A stretch of 64,000 nt of DNA from Eubacteriales bacterium (GTDB lineage Bacteria > Bacillota > Clostridia > Oscillospirales > CAG-382). The stretch is taken from NCBI GenBank assembly GCA_045536935.1, contig JAZSOO010000003.1:2281-66280 (forward strand), read 5' to 3'. A model generated the notes under the pieces. It did not search any database, was not told where the DNA came from, and worked only from the letters and a program-made list of their open reading frames with translations. The first letter of the stretch is position 1; every line of letters begins with the position of its first letter. Position numbers and translations under genes: made by a program. Shown here in pieces: positions 51,819-64,000 of the stretch.

Positions 51819-51848
51819 ATACCTATAAACCAAACGGAGGAATTGATT

Positions 51849-52445
51849 ATGGAATACGTTATCCGCGTTGAAAATGAAATTAACTTTGACCGTGCCGAAA
51901 AGGCTATGATCTCAAACTATAAATGGGTCGAGGGCTATGCACCCAAGGCTTTCGCAGAGCTTATCTACGTTGAAAACAAGGGATTTGCTCTTCGTATGAC
52001 CGCTTGTGAAGATAACCCCAAGGCAATCTACACCAAATATGACGAGCCCGTTTATAAGGACAGCTGTCTTGAATTTTTCGTCAGCTTCAATAAGGATAAC
52101 GGCAAATATATGAACTTTGAAATGAACGCAAACGGTGCTTTCCTTTCTGCCGTTCGTACCGACCGCAAGAACAAGACCGAGATCGACAAGCTTGCGCCCC
52201 TTCCCGAGGTTAAACCCTTCAAGGGTGAAGGATTCTGGGGTGTTGAAACCTTCTTCTCGCTCGACTTTATCGAAAAGACCTCGGGCAAAGCTTCTTTCGA
52301 AAGAGGAGAGAGCTTTAAGGGTAATTTCTATAAATGCGGTGACGAGACCGAAATACCCCATTTCGGTATGTGGTCGCCCGTCGGCACCGAAAACCCCGAT
52401 TTCCACCGTCCCGAATTCTTCGGAACTCTTACAATTGAAAAATAA
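51849..52445 (+). CDS. Cytoplasmic CBM9-like (carbohydrate-binding family 9-like) protein
   Basis: ATG at 51849, 8 nt after GGAGG. About 198 aa with no signal peptide. The motif pattern (CLEFF.S....Y.NFE.N..G, KCGD) resembles the CBM9-like family. Confidence 0.65.
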   Translation: MEYVIRVENEINFDRAEKAMISNYKWVEGYAPKAFAELIYVENKGFALRMTACEDNPKAIYTKYDEPVYKDSCLEFFVSFNKDNGKYMNFEMNANGAFLSAVRTDRKNKTEIDKLAPLPEVKPFKGEGFWGVETFFSLDFIEKTSGKASFERGESFKGNFYKCGDETEIPHFGMWSPVGTENPDFHRPEFFGTLTIEK

Positions 52446-53417: not shown

Positions 53418-53456
53418 GAATCCGTTAGACCGAAATTATTGACTAAGGAGAAAATT

Positions 53457-56288
53457 ATGAAACGTATCGTATCAATTGCGGTTATCTTTGCGATGATGCT
53501 TGCTGTTTTGGCTTTGCCCGTTTCGGCATTGGATTCTGACAGCGAAGCAAAATTCGATTTCGTTCTCGAAGGGCCCGAAACCTACGTTGCAGGCGACGAG
53601 ATCGAGGTTTACGCAAAGGTTAAGAATATAACTGCTTCCAACGGAACAGACGTTGGTCTTGCGCTCATTGAAGGTATATTGTATTACGACGAGACCAAGC
53701 TTGAGCTTACGAATGACCTTGATGAAGACGACGAAAACGGTGTTATGTGTGTTGAAAAGGTTCCTGCAACAAACTGGGAAAACCTTTCTAACACCGAGCA
53801 TATCTTTGACGAAGACGAATATCTTGCAACACCCACAAACTGCGGTTGGGTTGAATTTGCGGTCGCTACCGTCAATACAAACAAGAGGAATTTTGCCGTT
53901 GCCGACGATTCCGTAATCTTGAAGTTCACTTTTAAGGTCAAGGATACTGCGGTAGGCGATATCGAGATATATATTCCTGAGGTTGACGGCGCTTCCAATT
54001 CTACCGACGACTTTTTCGAATGCATAGGCAATGGCTCGGAATTGGTTATTGCAGACCCGAATTATATTGAGCCTTCCGAAGAACCCTCCGACGAGCCTTC
54101 CGAAGAACCTTCCGAAGAACCCAGCGAAGAGCCTTCCGAGGAACCTTCCGAAGAGCCCTCCGAAGAACCCAGCGAAGAGCCTTCCGGGGGACCTTCCGAA
54201 GAACCTTCCGAGGAACCCTCCGAAGAACCCAGCGAGGAACCTTCTGAAGAACCTTCCGAAGAACCTTCCGAAGAACCTTCCGAGGAACCTTCCGAAGAAC
54301 CTTCCGAGGAACCTTCCGAAGAACCTTCCGAGGAACCCTCCGAAGATCCTTCCGAAGAGCCTTCCGAGGAACCTTCTGAGGAACCTTCCGAAGAACCTTC
54401 CGAGGAACCTTCTGACGAACCTTCCGAAGAACCTTCCGAGGAACCTTCCGAGGAACCCTCCGAAGAACCTTCTGAAGAACCTTCCGAAGAACCCTCTGAA
54501 GAACCTTCCGAGGAACCCTCCGAAGAACCTTCCGAAGAACCTTCCGAGGAACCCTCCGAAGAACCTTCCGAGGAACCTTCTGAAGAACCTTCCGAGGAAC
54601 CCTCCGAAGAACCCTCCGAAGAACCTTCCGAAGAACCCTCCGAAGAACCCTCCGAAGAACCCTCCGAAGAACCTTCCGAAGAGCCTTCTGAAGAGCCCTC
54701 TGAAGAACCTTCCGAAGAACCTTCTGACGAACCTTCTGAAGAACCTTCCGAGGAACCTTCCGAGGAACCTTCCGAAGAACCTTCCGAAGAACCTTCCGAA
54801 GAACCTTCCGAGGAACCCGGCGAAGAACCGTCCGAAGAACCTTCCGAAGAACCTTCCGAGGAACCTTCCGAGGAACCCTCCGAAGAACCTTCCGAGGAAC
54901 CCTCCGAGGAACCCTCTGAGGAACCCTCTGAAGAACCCAGAGAGGAACTCGAAATAATTTATCAGCCCATTTCCGTTTGCGCAGAAAGCGGAGAGATTGC
55001 ATTGGTATCCGTAATGGCAAAGGGAGAAGGACTTACGTATCAATGGTATTATAAGAACGCAAACAGCGATTTCTTTATGCTCACCAACAGTACGAAGACC
55101 AACTATTATGCCGCTGTAATGGATACAAATCGTGCCGGCCGTCAGGTTTATTGCGTTATCACCGATAAATACGGCAATACGGTACAAACCGAGATCGCAA
55201 CCCTTAATATTACCGCTGAGATCGTTTCTCAGCCCGAATCCATCGCCGTTCAAAGCGGTACCGTGGCAAAAGTCAGCGTTAAAGCACTTGGCGAAGGATT
55301 GACTTATAAATGGTATTTCAAGAATAAGGGTGACAGCAAATTCAGCCTTACCAACAGCTATAAGAGCAATACGTATTCTATCGAAATGAACGGTACCCGT
55401 GCATCCCGTCAGGTTTATTGCGTTATCACCGATAAATACGGCAACACCGTAACGACCGAGACAGTAACTCTCGGCATGGCGGTCAAGATCACAAAACAGC
55501 CCGTTAACGTTTCCGCACAAAGCGGAAAGGTTGCAAAAGTTACCGTTACCGCTTCGGGCGAGGGCAAAACTTATAAATGGTATTATAAAGATAAAAACGC
55601 AACCAAGTTCACCCTCACAAACTCCTTCAAGGGCGATTCTTACTATATCGAAATGAACGGTACCCGTGCTTCCCGTCAGGTGTACTGTGTAATTACCGAC
55701 AAATACGGCAACAGCGTAACGACCGAGACCGTAACTCTCGGTATGGCGGTAAAGATAACAAAACAGCCCGCCGACGTTATCGTTTCCAACGGAGCAACCG
55801 CAACCGTGACCGTATCGGCATCGGGCGAAGGTAAAAAATATGAATGGTACTTCAAGGATAAGGGTGACAGTAAGTTCTATCTTACAAAATCCTTTACGGG
55901 CGATACCTATTCCGTAACGATGAACGAAGTCCGTGCATCCCGTCAGGTTTATTGCGTTATCACCGATAAATACGGCAACAGCGTAACTACCGAAACTGTA
56001 ACGCTTGGTATGCGTTTAAGCATCACTGCGCCGCTTCAAACCGTTACTGTTGCAAACGGAAAGACCGCAAAGGTTACTGTTAAAGCATTTGGCGAAGAAT
56101 TGACTTATAAATGGTATTTCAAAGACGTGGGTGCAACCGCATTCACTCTTACTACCTCCTTCACAGGTGATACCTATTCCGTAACTATGACAAAGGCCCG
56201 TGCAGGCAGACAGATCTATTGTGTTGTTACCGATAAATACGGCTATGCGATGTTTACGAACTCCGCAATGCTTAATATGCTTGGTTAA
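53457..56288 (+). CDS. Secreted scaffoldin-like protein: cohesin-like domain, ~290-aa (EEPS)n linker, five Ig-like repeats
   Basis: ATG 53457 after AAGGAGA (the track starts at a TTG at 53439). Signal peptide ..ALPVSA|LD. The N-terminal ~190 aa have a cohesin-like pattern (EIEVYAKVKNI.., YYDETKLEL, ILKFTFKVKD). Five 88-aa repeats carry the YKWY(F/Y)K...RQVYCVITDKYGN motif. No sortase motif or C-terminal TM segment is present. Confidence 0.8.
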   Translation: MKRIVSIAVIFAMMLAVLALPVSALDSDSEAKFDFVLEGPETYVAGDEIEVYAKVKNITASNGTDVGLALIEGILYYDETKLELTNDLDEDDENGVMCVEKVPATNWENLSNTEHIFDEDEYLATPTNCGWVEFAVATVNTNKRNFAVADDSVILKFTFKVKDTAVGDIEIYIPEVDGASNSTDDFFECIGNGSELVIADPNYIEPSEEPSDEPSEEPSEEPSEEPSEEPSEEPSEEPSEEPSGGPSEEPSEEPSEEPSEEPSEEPSEEPSEEPSEEPSEEPSEEPSEEPSEEPSEDPSEEPSEEPSEEPSEEPSEEPSDEPSEEPSEEPSEEPSEEPSEEPSEEPSEEPSEEPSEEPSEEPSEEPSEEPSEEPSEEPSEEPSEEPSEEPSEEPSEEPSEEPSEEPSEEPSEEPSEEPSEEPSDEPSEEPSEEPSEEPSEEPSEEPSEEPSEEPGEEPSEEPSEEPSEEPSEEPSEEPSEEPSEEPSEEPSEEPREELEIIYQPISVCAESGEIALVSVMAKGEGLTYQWYYKNANSDFFMLTNSTKTNYYAAVMDTNRAGRQVYCVITDKYGNTVQTEIATLNITAEIVSQPESIAVQSGTVAKVSVKALGEGLTYKWYFKNKGDSKFSLTNSYKSNTYSIEMNGTRASRQVYCVITDKYGNTVTTETVTLGMAVKITKQPVNVSAQSGKVAKVTVTASGEGKTYKWYYKDKNATKFTLTNSFKGDSYYIEMNGTRASRQVYCVITDKYGNSVTTETVTLGMAVKITKQPADVIVSNGATATVTVSASGEGKKYEWYFKDKGDSKFYLTKSFTGDTYSVTMNEVRASRQVYCVITDKYGNSVTTETVTLGMRLSITAPLQTVTVANGKTAKVTVKAFGEELTYKWYFKDVGATAFTLTTSFTGDTYSVTMTKARAGRQIYCVVTDKYGYAMFTNSAMLNMLG
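54069..54938 (+). repeat. Tandem 12-bp repeat, about 72 copies (encodes EPSE/EEPS)
   Basis: gaaccttccgaa units with synonymous variants (gag, ccc, tct, agc). Rare codon changes give D, G or R. Confidence 0.95.
54950..56282 (+). repeat. Five tandem ~264-bp repeats (Ig-like modules)
   Basis: Near-identical stretches such as cgtcaggtttattgcgttatcaccgataaatacggcaa recur at about 55140, 55408 and 55950. Diverged copies lie at about 55676 and 56210. Confidence 0.9.
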
Positions 56289-56938: not shown

Positions 56939-57163
56939 TTAGTTTTTGTATTGTAAGTCTTTCGGCAGTCCAAGCATATAATCGGCAGAAACAGCGAAAA
57001 AATTACAGATTGCTGTAATGTCTTCAATGCTTGGCTCGCATTTTCCGCATTCGATATACGAGAGCTTGCGTTGCGTCATTCCAAGCTTTTTGCCAAGCTC
57101 GGTTTGGTTCAATTCTTTTTCTTCTCGCAAATTTCGGAGCTTTTCCCCGAACGTCAATTTCAT
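56939..57163 (-). CDS. XRE-family helix-turn-helix transcriptional regulator
   Basis: 74 aa. Canonical LRNLREEKELNQTELGKKLGMTQRKLSYIE HTH_3 pattern. Confidence 0.85.
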   Translation of the reverse strand: MKLTFGEKLRNLREEKELNQTELGKKLGMTQRKLSYIECGKCEPSIEDITAICNFFAVSADYMLGLPKDLQYKN

Positions 57164-57207
57164 TTTTCATCACCCATATATAATTTACCATAGACAAAAA
57201 CTTTCTA

Positions 57208-57236
57208 TTGACAAATAGACAAAAAATGTCTATAAT
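57208..57236 (+). promoter_or_regulatory. Consensus promoter overlapped by operator palindromes (XRE / lipoprotein divergent region)
   Basis: TTGACA (57208-57213), 17 nt, TATAAT (57231-57236). A perfect inverted repeat ATAGACA-aaaaa-TGTCTAT lies at 57215-57233. A second, imperfect site ATAGACAAAAACTTTCTAT lies at 57190-57208. Confidence 0.65.
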
Positions 57237-57269
57237 AAATTATACTATTTTAAAAAAAGGAGCATTTTA

Positions 57270-57824
57270 ATGAAAAAAATCTTAATTGTAGTTTTAACTC
57301 TCACAATGTGCGTTTCTTTATTTGCCTGTAGTAGCGAAGCAAATGATAGAAGAAGCATAGAAAAAGTTATTGATGTTCTTAATGATGTGTGTTATTTTTA
57401 TGAATATAATGAAAAAAATCTATTGAAAGTAGCACCGGAGGATTTTTGGCAAAGTTGGGCAGATAACTATACTGACGGAGATTTGGAAGAACTGTTTGAT
57501 GATATGGAAAGAGAGGGAGAAACAGAGCGAAGCGGAGACGACGAACTGCCAAAAGAAGTAGAGTATGAAATAACATATTTCACACAGTTATCCGAAGACG
57601 AATGCGAACGTGTTGAAGAAGGACTCGAAAAAAGAGATGACATAAACTATGAAAATATATCTAACGCCTATTCTTTTAAAATGAAATTTATTATCACTGA
57701 TTCTGATGGTGAGAATTATGAAGAAGGGCCTTATAATTTTGTTGCTGTTAAAATGGAAGATGAGTGGTATATTGCAGATTACACAGAAAAAAGAATTCGT
57801 TGGACGGTGGACGGTTTTATTTAA
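57270..57824 (+). CDS. Lipoprotein, function unknown (low-GC gene)
   Basis: 184 aa. AAAGGAG RBS. Lipobox SLFAC|SS. Acidic and AT-rich, with codon usage unlike its neighbours. Confidence 0.7.
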   Translation: MKKILIVVLTLTMCVSLFACSSEANDRRSIEKVIDVLNDVCYFYEYNEKNLLKVAPEDFWQSWADNYTDGDLEELFDDMEREGETERSGDDELPKEVEYEITYFTQLSEDECERVEEGLEKRDDINYENISNAYSFKMKFIITDSDGENYEEGPYNFVAVKMEDEWYIADYTEKRIRWTVDGFI

Positions 57825-57850
57825 AATAGATAAAAAGTTCTGAAAAGAGA

Positions 57851-57890
57851 TTGCGAGAGGCAAACTTTTTCAAAAGTTTGCCTCTCGCAA
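57851..57890. terminator. Perfect 19-bp-arm palindrome (hairpin) between convergent genes
   Basis: TTGCGAGAGGCAAACTTTT-tc-AAAAGTTTGCCTCTCGCAA. A second hairpin AAAACGGCATC-aaaac-GATGCCGTTTTTT follows at 57896-57926. Confidence 0.7.
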
Positions 57891-57954
57891 TAAACGAAAA
57901 CGGCATCAAAACGATGCCGTTTTTTGCTGTTCATTTTGTCGGTTCGGAAGAAAA

Positions 57955-59928
57955 CTATCGTCTTCCGGGTCTTCCGCTCATACCGCCGGAGCCGAAGACG
58001 AGGGTTACCATTTCTATCTGTGAAAGTGTTGCACCGTCCTCGATGGAGGTATTTCGTGCATATCCGTTTTCGTCTGCACCGTCAACCGTTCCGCCTGCTA
58101 CGAGAGTATAGGTGTTGCCTGCCTGAATCTCGGGTGCGGAAACTACCGCAGAGGAATAGGTTTTATTGGGAGTGAAGGAAACTATTGCCTTGCCGTTGCT
58201 GTCGCAAAGAGCAAACGAGGTTCCGCCGTTGCAGGTCTGGAAGGTGCTGTATATTGCACCTTGGTTTTCTGCATTCGAAAATCCCTGCGCCATGCCCGAG
58301 CTTCCAAGTGCAATAAACACACCGCCCGTTACGGTTGCACCCGATTGGGTGTCAAGCGCACCGTTACCGTTGTTTGTAGGACCGCTTACAAGGGTGACAC
58401 CGCCTTTAACGGTTACCGTACCGTTGGAGTCGATACCGTCGCCCGAAGCATCAACTATTATCTTACCGCCCGAAATTATAATTTCACCAACGCCGTTGCC
58501 GAACATATCTCCGCCCATACCGCCGGGTCTTTGACCTCCTGCTCCGCCGCCGTGGTCGCCACCGCCGGGGTTAAAGTTACCGTCGGGCTTTTGGGGAGGT
58601 TGCCCACCGCTTTGATTCGGATTTTGTTGACCGTCAAAGCCTTCGGGGGGCATTTGACCGGGTTGCTGACCTTGCAGGTTGGGGTCTTGCTGACCGTTTT
58701 GGTCGGGACGTTGACCGCCGAAGTTGGGGTTTTGGTTGCCCGAGCCGTCATTACCGCCTGCGGCGTTGATACCGTCGTCGGAAGCGGTTATATCAATATC
58801 ACCGCCCGAAACGATAATTTTGCTTGCTTCAAGACCTTCATAGCATTTTTCAATGATTATCTTGCCGTTTGCGATCTGAAGGTCGGTATCGGCGTGGATA
58901 CCGTCGTCAGCGCTATTAAGAACAAATTCACCGTTTTTAATAAGGATAGAATTGTTTGCGTGGATAGAGTCGTCCATCGAATCGATATTGAATTTGCCGT
59001 TGTTGATGATAACGTCAAGAACGGCTTTTAAACCCTTGTACGATTCTTCGCTGTTTATACTTCCGACAGTGTTGGAAGAACCGCCGTTTGCAACGACGTT
59101 GATTTCGGCATTGTCTATCTTCAAAACCGTTTCTGCCTGAATACCGTCGTTGCCCGAGGTAATATCAAGCTTACCGCTTTCGATATAAACAAAACCACGG
59201 TCTGCGTCCTCTTCGTTGTCGGAACGAATACCGTCGCTGCCTGCATCGAGAATTAGATTTGCATCGGAGATCTTAACACAATCCTTGCCGTTAAGACCGA
59301 CCCCTATGGATATCGTGTGAAGTGTTGCAGAAACGATATTAAGGTCGTCTTTCGAAACTATAGCGTGCTTTGTATTGCCCTTAACGGTCAGCTCGCCCTT
59401 GCCGTTTATCGTAAGGTCGGCACGGGAGAATATGGCACCGTCGATATTTGTATCGCTGTCTTGAAGGCTGTATCCCGTTCCGTCGGAGATTTTGTTCTTT
59501 GTGCCTTCTTTGAGGGTTATAAACACCTTGTCGCCCGATTTGATATAGATACAAGGACCGTTTTCGTTGGTTATATTTGCATTGTCGAGGACGATCTGGA
59601 CCTTTTCCTCGTCGCCGACGGAAACGGTTATCATCTTGTTAATGTCGCCCGTGAAGATATAGGTTCCTTCTGCGGTTATATCAATGGAATTCTCGGATTC
59701 GGCAGGGGTTCTGACGTCCTTTTGGTCGTAAGAATTTTCCTTGTCACGCTTTGAAAATTCAAAATCCATATTCGCTGTATCAACAAAAGATACGTCTGTG
59801 TTTGCGTTTTCCGATTCTGTAGAAACGGAAACGTCTTTTGAAGTATCAATAGGTTCTTCGGTATTATCACAGCTTACAAACGAAAGCAGGAGTGCAAAAA
59901 CGAGGGAGCAAGCCAAAAGCTTTTTCAA
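57955..59928 (-). CDS. Cthe_2159-type carbohydrate/polyanion-binding beta-helix lipoprotein with a G/Q/P/N-rich insert
   Basis: 657 aa. TTG start 6 nt after AAGGTGA. Lipobox LLSFVSC|DN. Repeated ..I.SGDDGI.A.. beta-helix rungs (SDGIRSD, NDGIQAE, DDSIHAN, DDGIHAD, DDGINAA, GDGIDSN). Low-complexity tract GNQNPNFGGQRPDQNGQQDPNLQGQQPGQMPPEGFDGQQNPNQSGGQPPQKPDGNFNPGGG. Confidence 0.78.
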   Translation of the reverse strand: MKKLLACSLVFALLLSFVSCDNTEEPIDTSKDVSVSTESENANTDVSFVDTANMDFEFSKRDKENSYDQKDVRTPAESENSIDITAEGTYIFTGDINKMITVSVGDEEKVQIVLDNANITNENGPCIYIKSGDKVFITLKEGTKNKISDGTGYSLQDSDTNIDGAIFSRADLTINGKGELTVKGNTKHAIVSKDDLNIVSATLHTISIGVGLNGKDCVKISDANLILDAGSDGIRSDNEEDADRGFVYIESGKLDITSGNDGIQAETVLKIDNAEINVVANGGSSNTVGSINSEESYKGLKAVLDVIINNGKFNIDSMDDSIHANNSILIKNGEFVLNSADDGIHADTDLQIANGKIIIEKCYEGLEASKIIVSGGDIDITASDDGINAAGGNDGSGNQNPNFGGQRPDQNGQQDPNLQGQQPGQMPPEGFDGQQNPNQSGGQPPQKPDGNFNPGGGDHGGGAGGQRPGGMGGDMFGNGVGEIIISGGKIIVDASGDGIDSNGTVTVKGGVTLVSGPTNNGNGALDTQSGATVTGGVFIALGSSGMAQGFSNAENQGAIYSTFQTCNGGTSFALCDSNGKAIVSFTPNKTYSSAVVSAPEIQAGNTYTLVAGGTVDGADENGYARNTSIEDGATLSQIEMVTLVFGSGGMSGRPGRR

Positions 59929-60593
59929 AGCGATTCACCTTCTTCTGCAGATTCAAAGATTGAGATTTCAAGGTTGCCGTTGCGGCAGCGGAGCTCGTCG
60001 ATAAATTCCTTCAAGAGCGTTCTGTCCTTTGGCTTTATTTTGTAGGAGAGCTTATAAAGACTGCCCATATTTGAGGTTTTTGTTTTGACAAGCTTGTGGG
60101 ATTTTGTGTATTTTTTGAAAAGGTCGGAAAATGCGTCTGTAAAATTCAAGGATTCGGGAACGGTGATGTTAAGGCTCATCATTTCGTCACAGCCAAGCGG
60201 AATGAACGAGAGGGCGAAAAGCACCGCACCGACGATAAGCGAGAAAAGTATTGCAATAGCAACGTAACCGCCTGCGCAAGCCAAGCCCGCCGTCATTGAA
60301 AGGAAGATCGAAACGATATCCTTTGCCTTGCCCGGTACCGAACGGAAACGAACGAGCGAAAATGCACCCATAACGGCAATACCCGTTCCGACGTTGCCGT
60401 TTACCATGGTTATAACGGTTGAAACTATCATCGGAAGCAAAATGAGAGATATTATAAAGCTCTTTGAAGGCATCGAACGTATGCTTGCCGAGATTGCGGC
60501 TATAATACCGCAAACAAGCGCACAGGCAATGCATATCAAATATGCTTCGACGGAAAAACCGTCCTTTAATACAGATTCAAACAGCGCAGACAT
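59925..60593 (-). CDS. DUF4956 membrane protein
   Basis: 222 aa. Four predicted TM helices, an SLVRFRSVPGKAKD motif and a soluble C-terminal domain. The AGGAG RBS lies inside the upstream gene, with a 17-nt overlap. Confidence 0.82.
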   Translation of the reverse strand: MSALFESVLKDGFSVEAYLICIACALVCGIIAAISASIRSMPSKSFIISLILLPMIVSTVITMVNGNVGTGIAVMGAFSLVRFRSVPGKAKDIVSIFLSMTAGLACAGGYVAIAILFSLIVGAVLFALSFIPLGCDEMMSLNITVPESLNFTDAFSDLFKKYTKSHKLVKTKTSNMGSLYKLSYKIKPKDRTLLKEFIDELRCRNGNLEISIFESAEEGESL

Positions 60594-61320
60594 ACTTTTC
60601 TTCTCCTTCGGTCGATTTGATATTTATAGGGGAAAGTCCGGTTGCATCAAGATAGGATCTGCCGTATTTTGAGAACGAGGAGGGAAGTATCGTAAGCTCG
60701 TCAAGAATATGTGACAGCCATATCGGCATACTTCCGTCGGTCTTGATCTCGAGGATATATTCCCCGTTCGGGATGACCCGTTTTCCTTCTGTTCCTTTTG
60801 CAAGGTCGAGCGTATCACTTCGGTATCTTACGTTGGAATCGAAGGTTATACGCAGATTAGGCATATCTTTTATGTAATATGCTTCACGTTCGTATGCAAC
60901 AAGCATTCTCGGCTTTGGTCTGCCGTAAAAGTTCATCGCATGATCGATCTCGTTCATAATCTGCGAGCTTTCGGGTCTTGCACCGTTTTCGATATAATCC
61001 ATTGCCTGTTCAAGTGTTGTGGAGATCCTTCGTTTATAAACAACACCCTTATATTTTTTCTTTATCTCCAAAAAGACCTTGTTTTTTCCGTTCGGTGTGC
61101 CGTAGCTTCGCAAACGTAACTTTTCCTTATAGGTCTTTGCTTCTATCGAGTTTCTTATTATAAGAAAGCTTGGCGTATCAAGATAAAGACTGCAAACGGT
61201 ACTGTTTTTATGAGGGTCGGGGATAAGATATTCAAAGCAACGTGCTATCAAGGCATCTTTTTCTGCTTTGGTTATGCGGTATTTCTTTTCGATTCGCTTG
61301 AACGTATAAATATCCGCCAT
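60577..61320 (-). CDS. VTC-domain (polyphosphate polymerase / triphosphate-tunnel) protein
   Basis: 247 aa. N-terminal F.R.E.KY tunnel motif (FKRIEKKYRI) and alternating basic beta-strand pattern (LRLRSY, FLEIKKKYKGVVYKRR, ILEIKT). Confidence 0.82.
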   Translation of the reverse strand: MADIYTFKRIEKKYRITKAEKDALIARCFEYLIPDPHKNSTVCSLYLDTPSFLIIRNSIEAKTYKEKLRLRSYGTPNGKNKVFLEIKKKYKGVVYKRRISTTLEQAMDYIENGARPESSQIMNEIDHAMNFYGRPKPRMLVAYEREAYYIKDMPNLRITFDSNVRYRSDTLDLAKGTEGKRVIPNGEYILEIKTDGSMPIWLSHILDELTILPSSFSKYGRSYLDATGLSPINIKSTEGEEKYVCAV

Positions 61321-61379
61321 AAAATACCTCCTATCCCGATTTAGTGGGTAGAGTCTATTACTCTAACCTTAAATGAAAA

Positions 61380-62357
61380 CTAAAAAAGTTTTGCCGTTTT
61401 GTAAAGTTCTTCAAGACTTTCTGCTACGCTGTCGGGGGAGATGATCTCAATATCGTTGCCGAATCCCATGATCCAACCGAGAAAAACGGGACTTGGTACG
61501 ACGTTAACGTGTATACGGAAACGGTCACCGTCGTTGAGTATCGTTATATCGCTGCCGAATTTGTCGAGCATAACGTTGGCAAGACGGTTTGCACAGGAGA
61601 GGGTAACTCTTTCGGCTTTGCCTCCGAACATTCCGAATACAGAGCCGGAATAGGAAGCAATATCAAACCTTTTAAATTCTTCTTCGCCGATTCTTTCTTT
61701 TTCGGAAAGAACGGTTTCAAGCATTTTATCAACACGGTAATGACGGATGTCTTTTTTATCGTTATCAAATCCGACAAGATAATAATTACTGTCGTCCCAA
61801 ACGAGCGACCAAGGGCTAACGTCGTAACGCTTTCCGCCGTTGCGAAGCTCTTTTTTCTTGTCTGATGTCCAAGAGAAATAGGCAAACGATATGCAGCGAT
61901 CTGCTTCTATGGCATCGTGGATAATATCGATTGCCTTATAAATATCCTCGTTGTCGGATTTTTTGCGGTTGGAAACGAAAACGGCACGGTTCAAGGATTT
62001 TCTGTCGTGCTCGTTGGCAAGGGAAGCAAGCTTTTTGATCAGCGTTGCGCTTTTCTTTTCGGTTATAAACTTTGAAGCACGTACCGCATCGACCAATAAT
62101 TTAAGCTCGGGAAGCTGGAATTCACGCTCGCCGACGTAATAGCCGGAATACCTGCCCTTGACGGTTTGAATATCCAAGCCAAGCTCACGCAGGGTCTCGA
62201 GGTCGTTATAAATACTCTTGCGTTCTGCAGAAACACCGTATGCATTAAGTGCGGAAATGATTTCCTTCATAGATATGGGGTGATCGGGCCCCGTGCGCTC
62301 AAGCAGGATCGAACGCAGAAGGGAAAGCTTTTTCTTTTGGTTTGACGACCTTGCCAT
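61380..62357 (-). CDS. HTH + WYL domain transcriptional regulator
   Basis: 325 aa. N-terminal winged-HTH (LSLLRSILLE..ISMKEIISAL). Central WYL-like segment (SPWSLVWDDSNYYLVGFD...IRHYRVDKM). C-terminal WCX-like extension. Confidence 0.82.
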   Translation of the reverse strand: MARSSNQKKKLSLLRSILLERTGPDHPISMKEIISALNAYGVSAERKSIYNDLETLRELGLDIQTVKGRYSGYYVGEREFQLPELKLLVDAVRASKFITEKKSATLIKKLASLANEHDRKSLNRAVFVSNRKKSDNEDIYKAIDIIHDAIEADRCISFAYFSWTSDKKKELRNGGKRYDVSPWSLVWDDSNYYLVGFDNDKKDIRHYRVDKMLETVLSEKERIGEEEFKRFDIASYSGSVFGMFGGKAERVTLSCANRLANVMLDKFGSDITILNDGDRFRIHVNVVPSPVFLGWIMGFGNDIEIISPDSVAESLEELYKTAKLF

Positions 62358-62397
62358 AGAATCGCTCCTCTCGGTTTTTTTCTTCCATATATATTAT

Positions 62398-62426
62398 ATT
62401 ATAAAACCTATACAGACAAAAGTCAA
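62398..62426 (-). promoter_or_regulatory. Putative sigma-A promoter of the WYL regulator gene
   Basis: Minus strand TTGACT-17 nt-TATAAT. Confidence 0.55.
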
Positions 62427-62488
62427 TCGTGGCGAAAGCTTGAAAATGCAGGTTTGTTAAATTTTACAAGAAAAATAGTAAAAAACTC

Positions 62489-62517
62489 TTGACAAAGGCT
62501 TGACGGGGTGTTATTAT
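62489..62517 (+). promoter_or_regulatory. Putative sigma-A promoter of rpoB
   Basis: TTGACA (62489-62494), 17 nt, TATTAT (62512-62517). The leader to the ATG is about 130 nt. Confidence 0.55.
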
Positions 62518-62654
62518 ATTAAACTGCACTACAATGCGGAACTTATGCCGTTTTTGAGGTTATGTTAACCGACAAAAAAGCCGATTTTCCGCATAGGACA
62601 ATGAACAAAGCAGATGTTCACAGGCGAAGAACAAAGAATGGAGTGATTGGTTAA

Positions 62655-64000
62655 ATGGTAAAAGAACGACTTCTCGGAAAAACCCTCAGAATGTCTTTTT
62701 CCAAGAACGATGAGGTTCTCGAAATCCCAAATCTTATTGAAGTGCAGAAAAAATCCTTCAAAGATTTTGTAGAGCGTGATATCGGCGACGTATTGAGAGA
62801 TATCTCGCCTATGATGGATTATTCGGGCAACCTTATTATCGAGTTTGTCGATTATTCTCTTGATGAAACTCCCAAGTACAGCATTGAAGAATGCAAGGAA
62901 CGTGATCTCAACTATGCTACCCCCTTCAAGGTGACCGTACGTCTTACGAACAAGATCACCAGCGAAGTTAAAGAGCAAGAGATCTATATGGGCGATTTCC
63001 CGCTTATGACAGACAGCGGAACCTTTATTATCAACGGTGCGGAACGTGTCGTTGTTTCTCAGGTCGTCCGTTCCCCCGGTATATATTATGAAGCAATCGA
63101 TGACAAATCGGGTAAGAATCTCCTTGCCGCTACCGTAATTCCTTACCGTGGCGCATGGCTTGAATACGAAACCGATAACTCCGACGTATTCTACGTTCGT
63201 ATCGATAAAAACCGTAAGATCCCGATAACCGTACTTCTCCGTGCGTTCGGTTTGGGCTCTAACGAATCGATCCTTGAAAAATTCGGTGATGAACCTCTCT
63301 TGAAGGCGACCTTCGAGAAGGATACCATGCTTGCCGAAGTTGACCGTGTTATTCAGGCGGGCGGTATGACCAACCCCGTTGATGAAGCACTTAAAGAGAT
63401 CTATCGCAAATTACGTCCCGGCGATCCGCCTATCGTCGAAAGTGCGCAAATTCTTATAAACAACCTCTTCTTCGACGAAAAGAGATATGATATCTCTCAG
63501 GTCGGCAGATATAAATTCAATAAAAAGCTTGCTATGGCAAAACGTATCACCGGTCAGACTCTCTCCCGTGATGCAGTTTCTCCGATAACCGGCGAAGTTA
63601 TCTTTGAAGCAGGCAGAAAGCTTTCCAGAACCGAAGCAGAAGCTATCGAAGCTGCAGGTGTTTGCGAAGTTTGGCTTACCTGCATGGAAGAAGATAAGGA
63701 AGTTGAAGTAAAGGTATTCACAAACCGTATGGTAGACGCTTCTGCGGTTACCGGTATTTCCGATGAAATTCTCGGTTTCGGTGAATACGTATCTATCGAT
63801 CCTCTCGTTCGCATCATCAACGAAGTCGGCCTTTCCGACGTTGATGCGTTCAAGAAGGCTTGCGATAAGGCTATCGACGAGCTTATTCCCAAGCATATCA
63901 CTATCGACGACATTCTTGCGTCGGTAAACTATATTTTCTGTCTCTACCACAACGTTGGTAAGACCGACGATATCGACCATCTCGGCAACCGCCGTTTGCG
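62655..64000 (+). CDS. rpoB: DNA-directed RNA polymerase beta subunit, 5' partial (runs off the window)
   Basis: Not in the ORF track because it has no stop in the window. My own translation from ATG 62655 (GGAGTG RBS) gives MVKERLLGKTLRMSFSKNDEVLEIPNLIEVQKKSFKDF.. The frame stays open to 64000 and ends in the conserved GKTDDIDHLGNRRLR motif. Confidence 0.95.
   Translation, partial: MVKERLLGKTLRMSFSKNDEVLEIPNLIEVQKKSFKDFVERDIGDVLRDISPMMDYSGNLIIEFVDYSLDETPKYSIEECKERDLNYATPFKVTVRLTNKITSEVKEQEIYMGDFPLMTDSGTFIINGAERVVVSQVVRSPGIYYEAIDDKSGKNLLAATVIPYRGAWLEYETDNSDVFYVRIDKNRKIPITVLLRAFGLGSNESILEKFGDEPLLKATFEKDTMLAEVDRVIQAGGMTNPVDEALKEIYRKLRPGDPPIVESAQILINNLFFDEKRYDISQVGRYKFNKKLAMAKRITGQTLSRDAVSPITGEVIFEAGRKLSRTEAEAIEAAGVCEVWLTCMEEDKEVEVKVFTNRMVDASAVTGISDEILGFGEYVSIDPLVRIINEVGLSDVDAFKKACDKAIDELIPKHITIDDILASVNYIFCLYHNVGKTDDIDHLGNRRL

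Follow-up and report, generated by a model that had tools for sequence, protein, structure and literature searches.

In bacteria, PPK1 and PPK2 are credited with making polyphosphate; in yeast, a eukaryote, the VTC complex polymerises polyphosphate and is coupled to a channel in the vacuolar membrane. The locus described here (57955-61320, minus strand) lies in a stretch of 64,000 nucleotides (nt) of DNA from an Eubacteriales bacterium (Clostridia, Oscillospirales; GenBank assembly GCA_045536935.1, contig JAZSOO010000003.1), the whole of which is referred to as the window. It encodes a stand-alone VTC-domain protein, a membrane protein of the DUF4956 family and a beta-helix lipoprotein of the Cthe_2159 family. 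The trio is a good candidate for a non-PPK polyphosphate route at the cell envelope.

Polyphosphate synthesis by yeast Vtc4 needs residues K200, R264, R266, K281, Y359, R361, E426, S457 and K458, as determined by cryo-EM (bioRxiv 10.1101/2023.01.27.525886; PMC9911596). E426 is a Mn-binding residue, and K458 is a lysine solely in the active subunit Vtc4, which it separates from the inactive Vtc2 and Vtc3 (bioRxiv 10.1101/2023.01.27.525886). Among bacteria, streptococcal and clostridial Pel loci have been listed with accessory genes for CotH, polyphosphate polymerase, DUF4956 and DUF4832 proteins (Whitfield 2020, PMC7112168); those of Streptococcus intermedius are SIR_1594 (CotH), SIR_1593 (polyphosphate polymerase) and SIR_1592 (DUF4956) (PMC7112168; PMC12345266). 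Deletion of the DUF4956-like and CotH genes in this organism altered Pel-dependent aggregation and Pel levels (mBio 2025, PMC12345266), and its DUF4956 homologue was described as an MgtC transmembrane domain plus ACT (PMC12345266). The founding member of the Cthe_2159 family, from C. thermocellum, was reported to bind cellulose and polygalacturonate in a Ca-dependent manner; Cthe_2159 and CotH are also among the few Pfam domains that, within the fungi, are unique to anaerobic gut fungi, and the fungal copies of Cthe_2159 were reported to have been acquired from rumen Clostridiales (PMC6712302). PPK-independent extracellular polyphosphate was described in the Bacillus cereus group by a 2026 preprint, which ascribes it to an 'uncharacterized pathway', treats VTC4 as fungal/protozoan and states that B. 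cereus is without a homologue.

The four co-oriented minus-strand genes predicted by the initial annotation of the window were borne out by the list of open reading frames (ORFs); lengths are in amino acids (aa):

61380-62357, minus strand: WYL gene, encoding an HTH-WYL-WCX regulator of the YafY/PafBC/BrxR type (325 aa; Pfam WYL and WCX)
60577-61320, minus strand: VTC gene, encoding a stand-alone VTC-domain protein (247 aa; Pfam VTC)
59925-60593, minus strand: DUF4956 gene, encoding a membrane protein (222 aa; Pfam DUF4956)
57955-59928, minus strand: Cthe_2159-family lipoprotein gene (657 aa, TTG start; Pfam Cthe_2159)

Judged from gene order and junctions, the three genes VTC, DUF4956 and lipoprotein form a genuine conserved module: their translation is coupled, and many Clostridia have inherited them together. 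In all, 84 loci around VTC homologues (45-73% identity) were collected, 80 from species-representative genomes, nearly all of them rumen or gut Clostridia, and four by metagenome or genome look-ups; these loci, and others fetched later, are cited by L numbers. DUF4956 directly follows VTC wherever there is room for it (82/82 loci), usually with an overlap of 8 or 17 nt. Of the 70 loci that extend 3 kb or more downstream, 51 have a Cthe_2159-type gene next, the other 19 pairs being without a beta-helix gene, and the DUF4956 stop and lipoprotein start overlap by 4 nt in 20 loci. For the reciprocal test, the beta-helix protein was searched against metagenome contigs (32-49% identity), and 55 genes had enough upstream sequence. 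VTC-DUF4956 adjoins 48 of them: the pair lies directly upstream of 39, DUF4956 only is found at one, and eight show another order or orientation; the remaining seven have neither gene. Linkage that persists through rearrangement in this way is strong evidence of common function. The trio, grouped as one unit by the initial annotation, is thus syntenic in both directions of the census, and junction overlaps and gene order that are seen again in dozens of species are not due to chance. Cultivable Ruminococcus and Blautia relatives also carry the trio.

As modelled, the VTC protein is a triphosphate-tunnel enzyme of the cytoplasm and, among solved structures, most resembles the catalytic domain of yeast Vtc4. 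It has no signal peptide and a pI of 9.2, and it matches Pfam VTC over profile positions 2-231 of 235 (2e-40; 139 bits, cut-off 23). The best PDB fold matches of its AlphaFold2 (AF2) model (pLDDT 87.9) were yeast Vtc4 structures 3g3r/3g3q (E 6e-13, TM 0.67), and the top 13 were all Vtc4, Vtc3 or Vtc2 structures (E 6e-13 to 2.5e-10). Generic CYTH/TTM enzymes ranked below these (ygiF and adenylate cyclases at 3e-8 or worse); class IV adenylate cyclases and thiamine triphosphatase were also matched. At the sequence level, phmmer against the PDB gave weak Vtc3 matches only, and the family profile reached Vtc4, with only VTC residues 38-168 aligned. Residues R69, R71, K87, Y143 and R145 of the window protein align to Vtc4 R264, R266, K281, Y359 and R361, respectively, and are invariant across 25 homologues. 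Further motifs invariant in the same 25 sequences, R9-x-E11-x-K13, E191-x-K193 and S217-K218 (in SFSKYG, 215-220), match Vtc4 R196/K200, E426/K428 and S457/K458; these were placed by spacing, not by alignment, and sit on matching secondary-structure elements of the AF2 model. Separate N- and C-terminal slices of the VTC profile gave only chance matches in the PDB, with K200, E426, S457 and K458 left unaligned. Judged by motif spacing, the protein appears to retain a lysine at the place equivalent to K458.

The VTC assignment of the initial annotation is therefore upheld, with a profile match over the full domain and five catalytic tunnel residues aligned and invariant. Family profiles, synteny and tunnel residues, the three points on which that annotation had staked its reading of the trio, were all found as it expected. 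The VTC family is large, with at least 7,950 word-index matches and 8,204 clusters at 50% identity (E up to 1e-3); its members are nearly all stand-alone proteins of ca. 240 aa, named 'polyphosphate polymerase domain-containing protein' by NCBI. No natural VTC-DUF4956 fusion was seen among the matches examined; P0108 (345 aa), considered as a VTC fusion, merely has an over-extended N-terminus. The C-terminus of the VTC protein is otherwise disordered and retains a 'GE-x-x-YV' motif in the homologue alignment (window 60577-60610). This motif coincides with the Shine-Dalgarno sequence and ATG of DUF4956, so that its conservation probably reflects translational coupling rather than protein function.

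DUF4956 is, in its predicted structure, an integral membrane protein of MgtC-like build with a cytoplasmic ACT/PII-like domain. Its family assignment in the initial annotation was confirmed by a Pfam match above the curated cut-off (5e-11); most homologues are 221-223 aa long, and identity among the top matches is 62-72%. The AF2 model (pLDDT 76) consists of five helices followed by a C-terminal beta-alpha-beta-beta-alpha-beta domain, which by fold search resembles the ACT, CutA, PII-like and NikR-C regulatory folds (generic ferredoxin-like); the whole protein gave no significant match in the PDB by sequence or fold. Sub-threshold MgtC matches on the helical part were obtained for 30 of 40 homologues (best E 0.005), the window protein itself scoring below threshold against MgtC PF02308 (E 2; 9 bits versus a cut-off of 31). 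The likeness is one of architecture, not of family membership. MgtC is a regulatory membrane protein, not a channel, and influences ATP and phosphate homeostasis. The most conserved segment of DUF4956 is NGNxGTG...RFRSxPGKAKD, of which RFRSxPGKAKD is a basic loop. According to the positive-inside rule, the N-terminus would be outside and the C-terminus inside, which would place this segment on the cytoplasmic side; there, it could dock the polymerase or the anionic product of that enzyme. The 'membrane conduit' of the initial annotation was not recovered: no pore is evident in the MgtC-like five-helix part or the ACT-like domain.

The lipoprotein is predicted to be lipid-anchored on the outer face of the membrane as an extended, very acidic beta-helix. 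It begins with a signal peptide and lipobox (...LLLSFVS-C20), matches Pfam Cthe_2159 (PF14262; 2e-83, 280 bits) and aligns over residues 62-299 to the Cthe_2159 structure PDB 4peu (E 1.9e-32); a lipobox is present in at least 42 of 56 homologues. Six D/N/S-D-G/S-I-x-A/S rungs were identified. Past the 4PEU-aligned part follow more rungs, a low-complexity insertion and a conserved C-terminal region of ca. 170 aa (residues 485-657) without a Pfam family. The beta-helix rungs and the G/Q/P/N-rich tract proposed by the initial annotation are both present; the tract, at a variable position of the family alignment, comprises 103 aa (residues 382-484) rather than ca. 90. The mature protein contains 90 D+E against 42 K+R residues (pI 4.27), and the family is uniformly acidic (pI 4.05-4.62, median 4.19), which weakens its designation as a 'surface polyanion-binding protein'. 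Residues D342, H345, E364, E367, D384, D385, N388, D497, D500, N502 and D526 make up most of the residues invariant in the family. This D/H/E/N cluster falls in the half of the protein beyond the 4PEU-aligned part and suggests a metal or catalytic site instead of a purely binding protein.

Low-complexity tracts rich in Gly/Met/Pro/Gln occur in 34 of 57 beta-helix homologues (including L002, L006, L010, L017, L021, L024, L027, L030 and L033), mostly as C-terminal tails with basic ends such as ...GGRPPR and ...RKPGR; the window protein ends in ...GGMSGRPGRR (57955-57990).

Cthe_2159 and CotH are alternative extracytoplasmic partners of VTC-DUF4956. Envelope enzymes also stand beside the pair: L012 has an LtaS-type sulfatase together with CotH, L029 a NAGPA phosphodiester glycosidase, L009 a PMT_2 glycosyltransferase, L003 a GT2 with three secreted Exo_endo_phos paralogues, and L020 DUF5696. 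The regulator found most often nearby is an OmpR-type response regulator with histidine kinase, divergently transcribed, which stands beside VTC-DUF4956 in ca. 20 of the 84 loci (among them L013, L034, L035, L038, L040, L046-L048, L053, L054, L076, L080 and L082); beside most trios lies either a two-component system or no regulator. The best partial NCBIfam matches of this system were RppA/RppB and PhoB/PhoR. All NCBIfam matches fell below the curated cut-offs, and identity with PhoPR is not claimable.

These data are best explained, with a probability that we put at roughly 40%, by a membrane-coupled polyphosphate synthase that acts on the cell envelope and whose product or activity is directed outward via DUF4956 and a surface partner. 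The VTC polymerase, docked on DUF4956, would make polyphosphate from ATP. DUF4956 would tether and gate the polymerase, with the ACT-like domain as a metabolite sensor, and may pass the polyphosphate chain, or phosphate from it, outward. Once loaded with a divalent cation such as Ca2+, the lipoprotein would capture, organise or process the product at the cell surface. Taken together, this would amount to a polyphosphate pathway that is independent of PPK, is directed to the envelope and provides a surface phosphate/cation store or a matrix component. Replacement of the beta-helix protein by a secreted CotH kinase in sister modules points to an extracytoplasmic end-point. The more specific proposal that VTC-DUF4956 constitutes a third bacterial class of polyphosphate synthase, PPK-independent, minimal-VTC-like and handing its polymer to a surface partner (the Ca-loaded beta-helix lipoprotein or CotH), is regarded as doubtful.

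Several points weigh against a membrane-coupled synthase of this kind. No report of polyphosphate made by any bacterial VTC-domain protein was found in the literature searched, and deletion of the VTC homologue of S. intermedius gave no reported aggregation phenotype (PMC12345266). The mapping of K200, E426, S457 and K458 follows motif spacing without alignment, and the AF2 models were built on shallow alignments (25-40 sequences, at least 58% identical). In sequence and fold, DUF4956 resembles neither the Vtc1/3/4 channel nor any transporter of solved structure; with the regulator MgtC as its nearest relative, export is pure inference. The acidity of the lipoprotein family argues against direct binding of polyphosphate, which could be bound only through bridging cations or metal ions. 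Finally, about a quarter of the VTC-DUF4956 pairs adjoin neither a beta-helix gene nor CotH.

The main rival, which we consider unlikely, is an intracellular synthase that makes cytoplasmic granules at the membrane, DUF4956 only anchoring or tuning it through the ACT-like domain and the lipoprotein having a separate role in binding plant fibre, pectin or cations. The MgtC-like build of DUF4956 with its lack of transporter likeness, the acidity of the lipoprotein and the 19/70 pairs without a beta-helix gene would all suit such an arrangement, as would the binding of cellulose and polygalacturonate reported for Cthe_2159 (PMC6712302) in hosts that are rumen and gut fibre degraders. However, the linkage also holds very tightly from the beta-helix side (48/55) and through rearrangement, DUF4956 and lipoprotein share a 4-nt stop/start overlap in 20 loci, and the alternative partner CotH is likewise secreted (PMC12345266). 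A product confined to the cytoplasm would leave such dedicated extracytoplasmic partners hard to account for. Still less probable is a tunnel reaction other than polymerisation, such as that of a triphosphatase or tripolyphosphatase, nucleotide cyclisation, or the transfer of phosphate or pyrophosphate onto a precursor of an envelope glycopolymer; the module would then modify or regulate the synthesis of cell wall or exopolysaccharide. Members of the TTM/CYTH superfamily catalyse diverse reactions, the fold search extends to ygiF, class IV adenylate cyclases and thiamine triphosphatase, the neighbours are often polysaccharide or teichoic-acid-type enzymes or Pel or exopolysaccharide (EPS) clusters, and no polyphosphate phenotype has been reported; but the nearest relatives in fold and sequence are specifically Vtc proteins, and the lysine that separates active Vtc4 from Vtc2/3 is apparently kept in the invariant SFSKYG.

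The initial annotation had further proposed that a ligand-sensing WYL protein switches the trio on as one unit, and a WYL-controlled stress or defence island of this kind is considered very improbable. The family assignment itself stands, WYL (2.9e-15, 56.5 bits) and WCX (6e-9, 36.5 bits) both being above their curated cut-offs, with a weak HTH_11 match (22.1 bits, cut-off 25). Co-transcription is possible across the 59-nt gap, in which no terminator was seen by a hairpin scan and which would allow read-through from the WYL promoter; the same compact WYL-VTC order is shared by the closest relatives (L001, L002, L005 and L008), and the WYL models of PADLOC match. These are generic models only, however, and no defence-system model of PADLOC matched any trio protein. 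WYL orthologues (55-70% identity) remain divergent from rpoB-rpoC with unrelated genes downstream in L087, L090 and L091, and in L088/L089 WYL and the trio are kept apart by a TM2 gene and a gap of 640 nt. The compact arrangement is confined to the four closest relatives; WYL lies upstream in just 4/74 VTC loci and in 0/80 beta-helix loci. The commonest neighbouring regulator is instead the OmpR-type two-component system, and the region is ordinary core chromosome (MetH, MTHFR, FtsK, BacA, rpoB). Since its orthologues are anchored at rpoB-rpoC, often without the trio, the WYL gene is probably not part of the functional module as far as gene context tells, and the proposed WYL switch is weakened accordingly. 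The WYL protein may still drive transcription of the trio in this organism, given the lack of a terminator.

The following signals were located around and between the four genes:

62426-62398, minus strand: sigma-70-type WYL promoter TTGACT-17-TATAAT (consensus scan, 11/12 positions)
61321-61379, minus strand: WYL-VTC spacer (59 nt), with the VTC ribosome-binding site GGAGG upstream of ATG
57923-57897, minus strand: operon-end terminator hairpin 1, just after the lipoprotein stop
57891-57850, minus strand: operon-end terminator hairpin 2, a 19-bp palindrome

Sequence reading and the consensus scan agree with the promoter, the 59-nt gap, the two overlaps and the embedded ribosome-binding sites given by the initial annotation. 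VTC and DUF4956 overlap by 17 nt, with a Shine-Dalgarno-like GAAGGAGAAGAAAAG within the VTC gene, and the DUF4956 stop and lipoprotein start share TTGA, with a Shine-Dalgarno-like GAAGGTGA within the DUF4956 gene. The WYL promoter has the maximum score of the region, tied with a divergent site on the plus strand (62489-62517), and its hexamer positions are retained across five genomes. An imperfect 9-nt inverted repeat is carried by the WYL-VTC spacer; the spacer inverted repeats are not kept in relatives and were rejected as a conserved element. Nothing real was found by an Rfam scan of 56-64 kb, a 'mir-4659' match on both strands being a chance match to the 57850-57891 palindrome. This palindrome can also terminate the convergent plus-strand gene.

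On the plus strand, the sequence encoding the RpoB N-terminus begins at ca. 62655 and continues past the end of the window. Upstream of WYL, no other non-coding block is as conserved in the five genomes as the divergent rpoB promoter (62489-62517, plus strand; TTGACA-17-TATTAT, with TG upstream). The WYL/WCX family is kept divergent from rpoB-rpoC across a Clostridia lineage, irrespective of the genes downstream (L087, L090, L091, L002, L005, L008 and window 61380-62560). Between the divergent promoters, the palindrome TTGTTAAATTT/AAATTTTACAA (62454-62469) overlaps invariant alignment columns and is a candidate operator. Two minus-strand ORFs antisense to rpoB (62565-62978 and 63411-63980) are probably spurious.

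The low-GC islet and the repeat field placed beside the trio by the initial annotation are both present. The GC content drops to 0.33 at 57.0-57.75 kb; the islet (56939-57891) holds a 74-aa XRE-family HTH protein (56939-57163, minus strand) and a 184-aa acidic lipoprotein of no family (57270-57824, plus strand), and is closed by the bidirectional palindromic terminator at 57850-57891. The PSEE repeat field (ca. 54.0-55.0 kb; Pfam PT repeat 2.7e-54) belongs to a 949-aa secreted surface protein (53439-56288, plus strand) that carries some 80 PSEE(P) repeats in tandem and, after them, five Ig-like repeats; long antisense or out-of-frame ORFs at 53.5-55.5 kb are artefacts of these repeats. A CBM9_2-domain protein of ca. 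200 aa is encoded near the WYL/trio region in three related genomes (window 51843-52445, plus strand; L001 9240-9836; L090 9804-10400).

If the proposed route is real, bacteria would have a separate, envelope-tied way to polyphosphate in a Vtc4-type family that comprises some 8,200 clusters (50% identity) and always comes with a membrane protein as partner; should the third-class proposal hold, cell-surface or extracellular polyphosphate would be expected in thousands of gut and rumen Firmicutes lineages. The question is a live one in view of the PPK-independent extracellular polyphosphate of the B. cereus group in the 2026 preprint, and the CotH-containing sister version links the trio to exopolysaccharide and Pel biology. 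As a small three-gene module with clear point mutants and cultivable relatives, it makes the hypothesis directly testable.

Compared with the yeast VTC complex (Vtc4/Vtc3/Vtc1; PDB 3G3Q, 7YTJ, 8I6V), the window VTC protein has the same triphosphate-tunnel catalytic fold and conserves the substrate-binding basic residues and tyrosine of Vtc4, and both systems link a cytoplasmic polymerase genetically to a membrane protein. Unlike its yeast counterpart, the window protein is without SPX and a Vtc-type transmembrane domain, the catalytic domain being a separate protein of 247 aa. DUF4956, being MgtC-like, is unrelated to Vtc1 by sequence or fold search, and the extracytoplasmic lipoprotein has no counterpart in yeast VTC. 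PPK1 and PPK2 would have the same product as that proposed here, polyphosphate from ATP, but are unrelated to the VTC protein in fold and mechanism; we know of no PPK paired with a dedicated membrane protein and lipoprotein. MgtC (PF02308), a virulence factor of Salmonella and Mycobacterium, shares with DUF4956 five transmembrane helices and a cytoplasmic ACT-like domain and, to our knowledge, does not partner a polymerase. Cthe_2159 of C. thermocellum (PDB 4PEU, a PL9-like beta-helix) aligns to ca. 240 N-terminal residues of the window lipoprotein, which in contrast is twice as long and lipid-anchored and has a low-complexity insertion, extra rungs and a family-less C-terminal part of ca. 170 aa. 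The gene context of the window protein is VTC-DUF4956; a literature search for genes adjoining Cthe_2159 in C. thermocellum found nothing.

The Pel-locus module of S. intermedius has the same VTC-DUF4956 pair with an extracytoplasmic third partner, and the published MgtC/ACT description agrees with the model of the window protein. The third partner there is CotH, whereas the window has a beta-helix lipoprotein of the Cthe_2159 type in that role, and the genes are ordered differently. No CotH was detected in the window by jackhmmer with the CotH of Pseudobutyrivibrio plasmid pNP95 as seed, and CotH was present in only 2 of the 171 fetched loci (the seed, L085, not counted). Likewise, no pel genes, which in Gram-positive Pel loci form pelDEADAFG, were found among the ORFs scanned at ca. 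39-57 kb, which encode housekeeping and surface proteins, or beyond WYL, where rpoB follows. The three-gene CotH-VTC-DUF4956 arrangement was stated not to have been found outside Pel loci (PMC12345266); on pNP95 it lies inside a non-Pel exopolysaccharide cluster, and in the present census the VTC-DUF4956 pair is widespread outside Pel loci. The initial annotation knew of no demonstrated function for the bacterial trio. None was found for the beta-helix version in the searchable literature, but the pair itself had already been noted in Pel loci, with deletion mutants. The beta-helix version is thus a distinct, uncharacterised variant, common in this clade, with a lipoprotein in place of the secreted CotH kinase.

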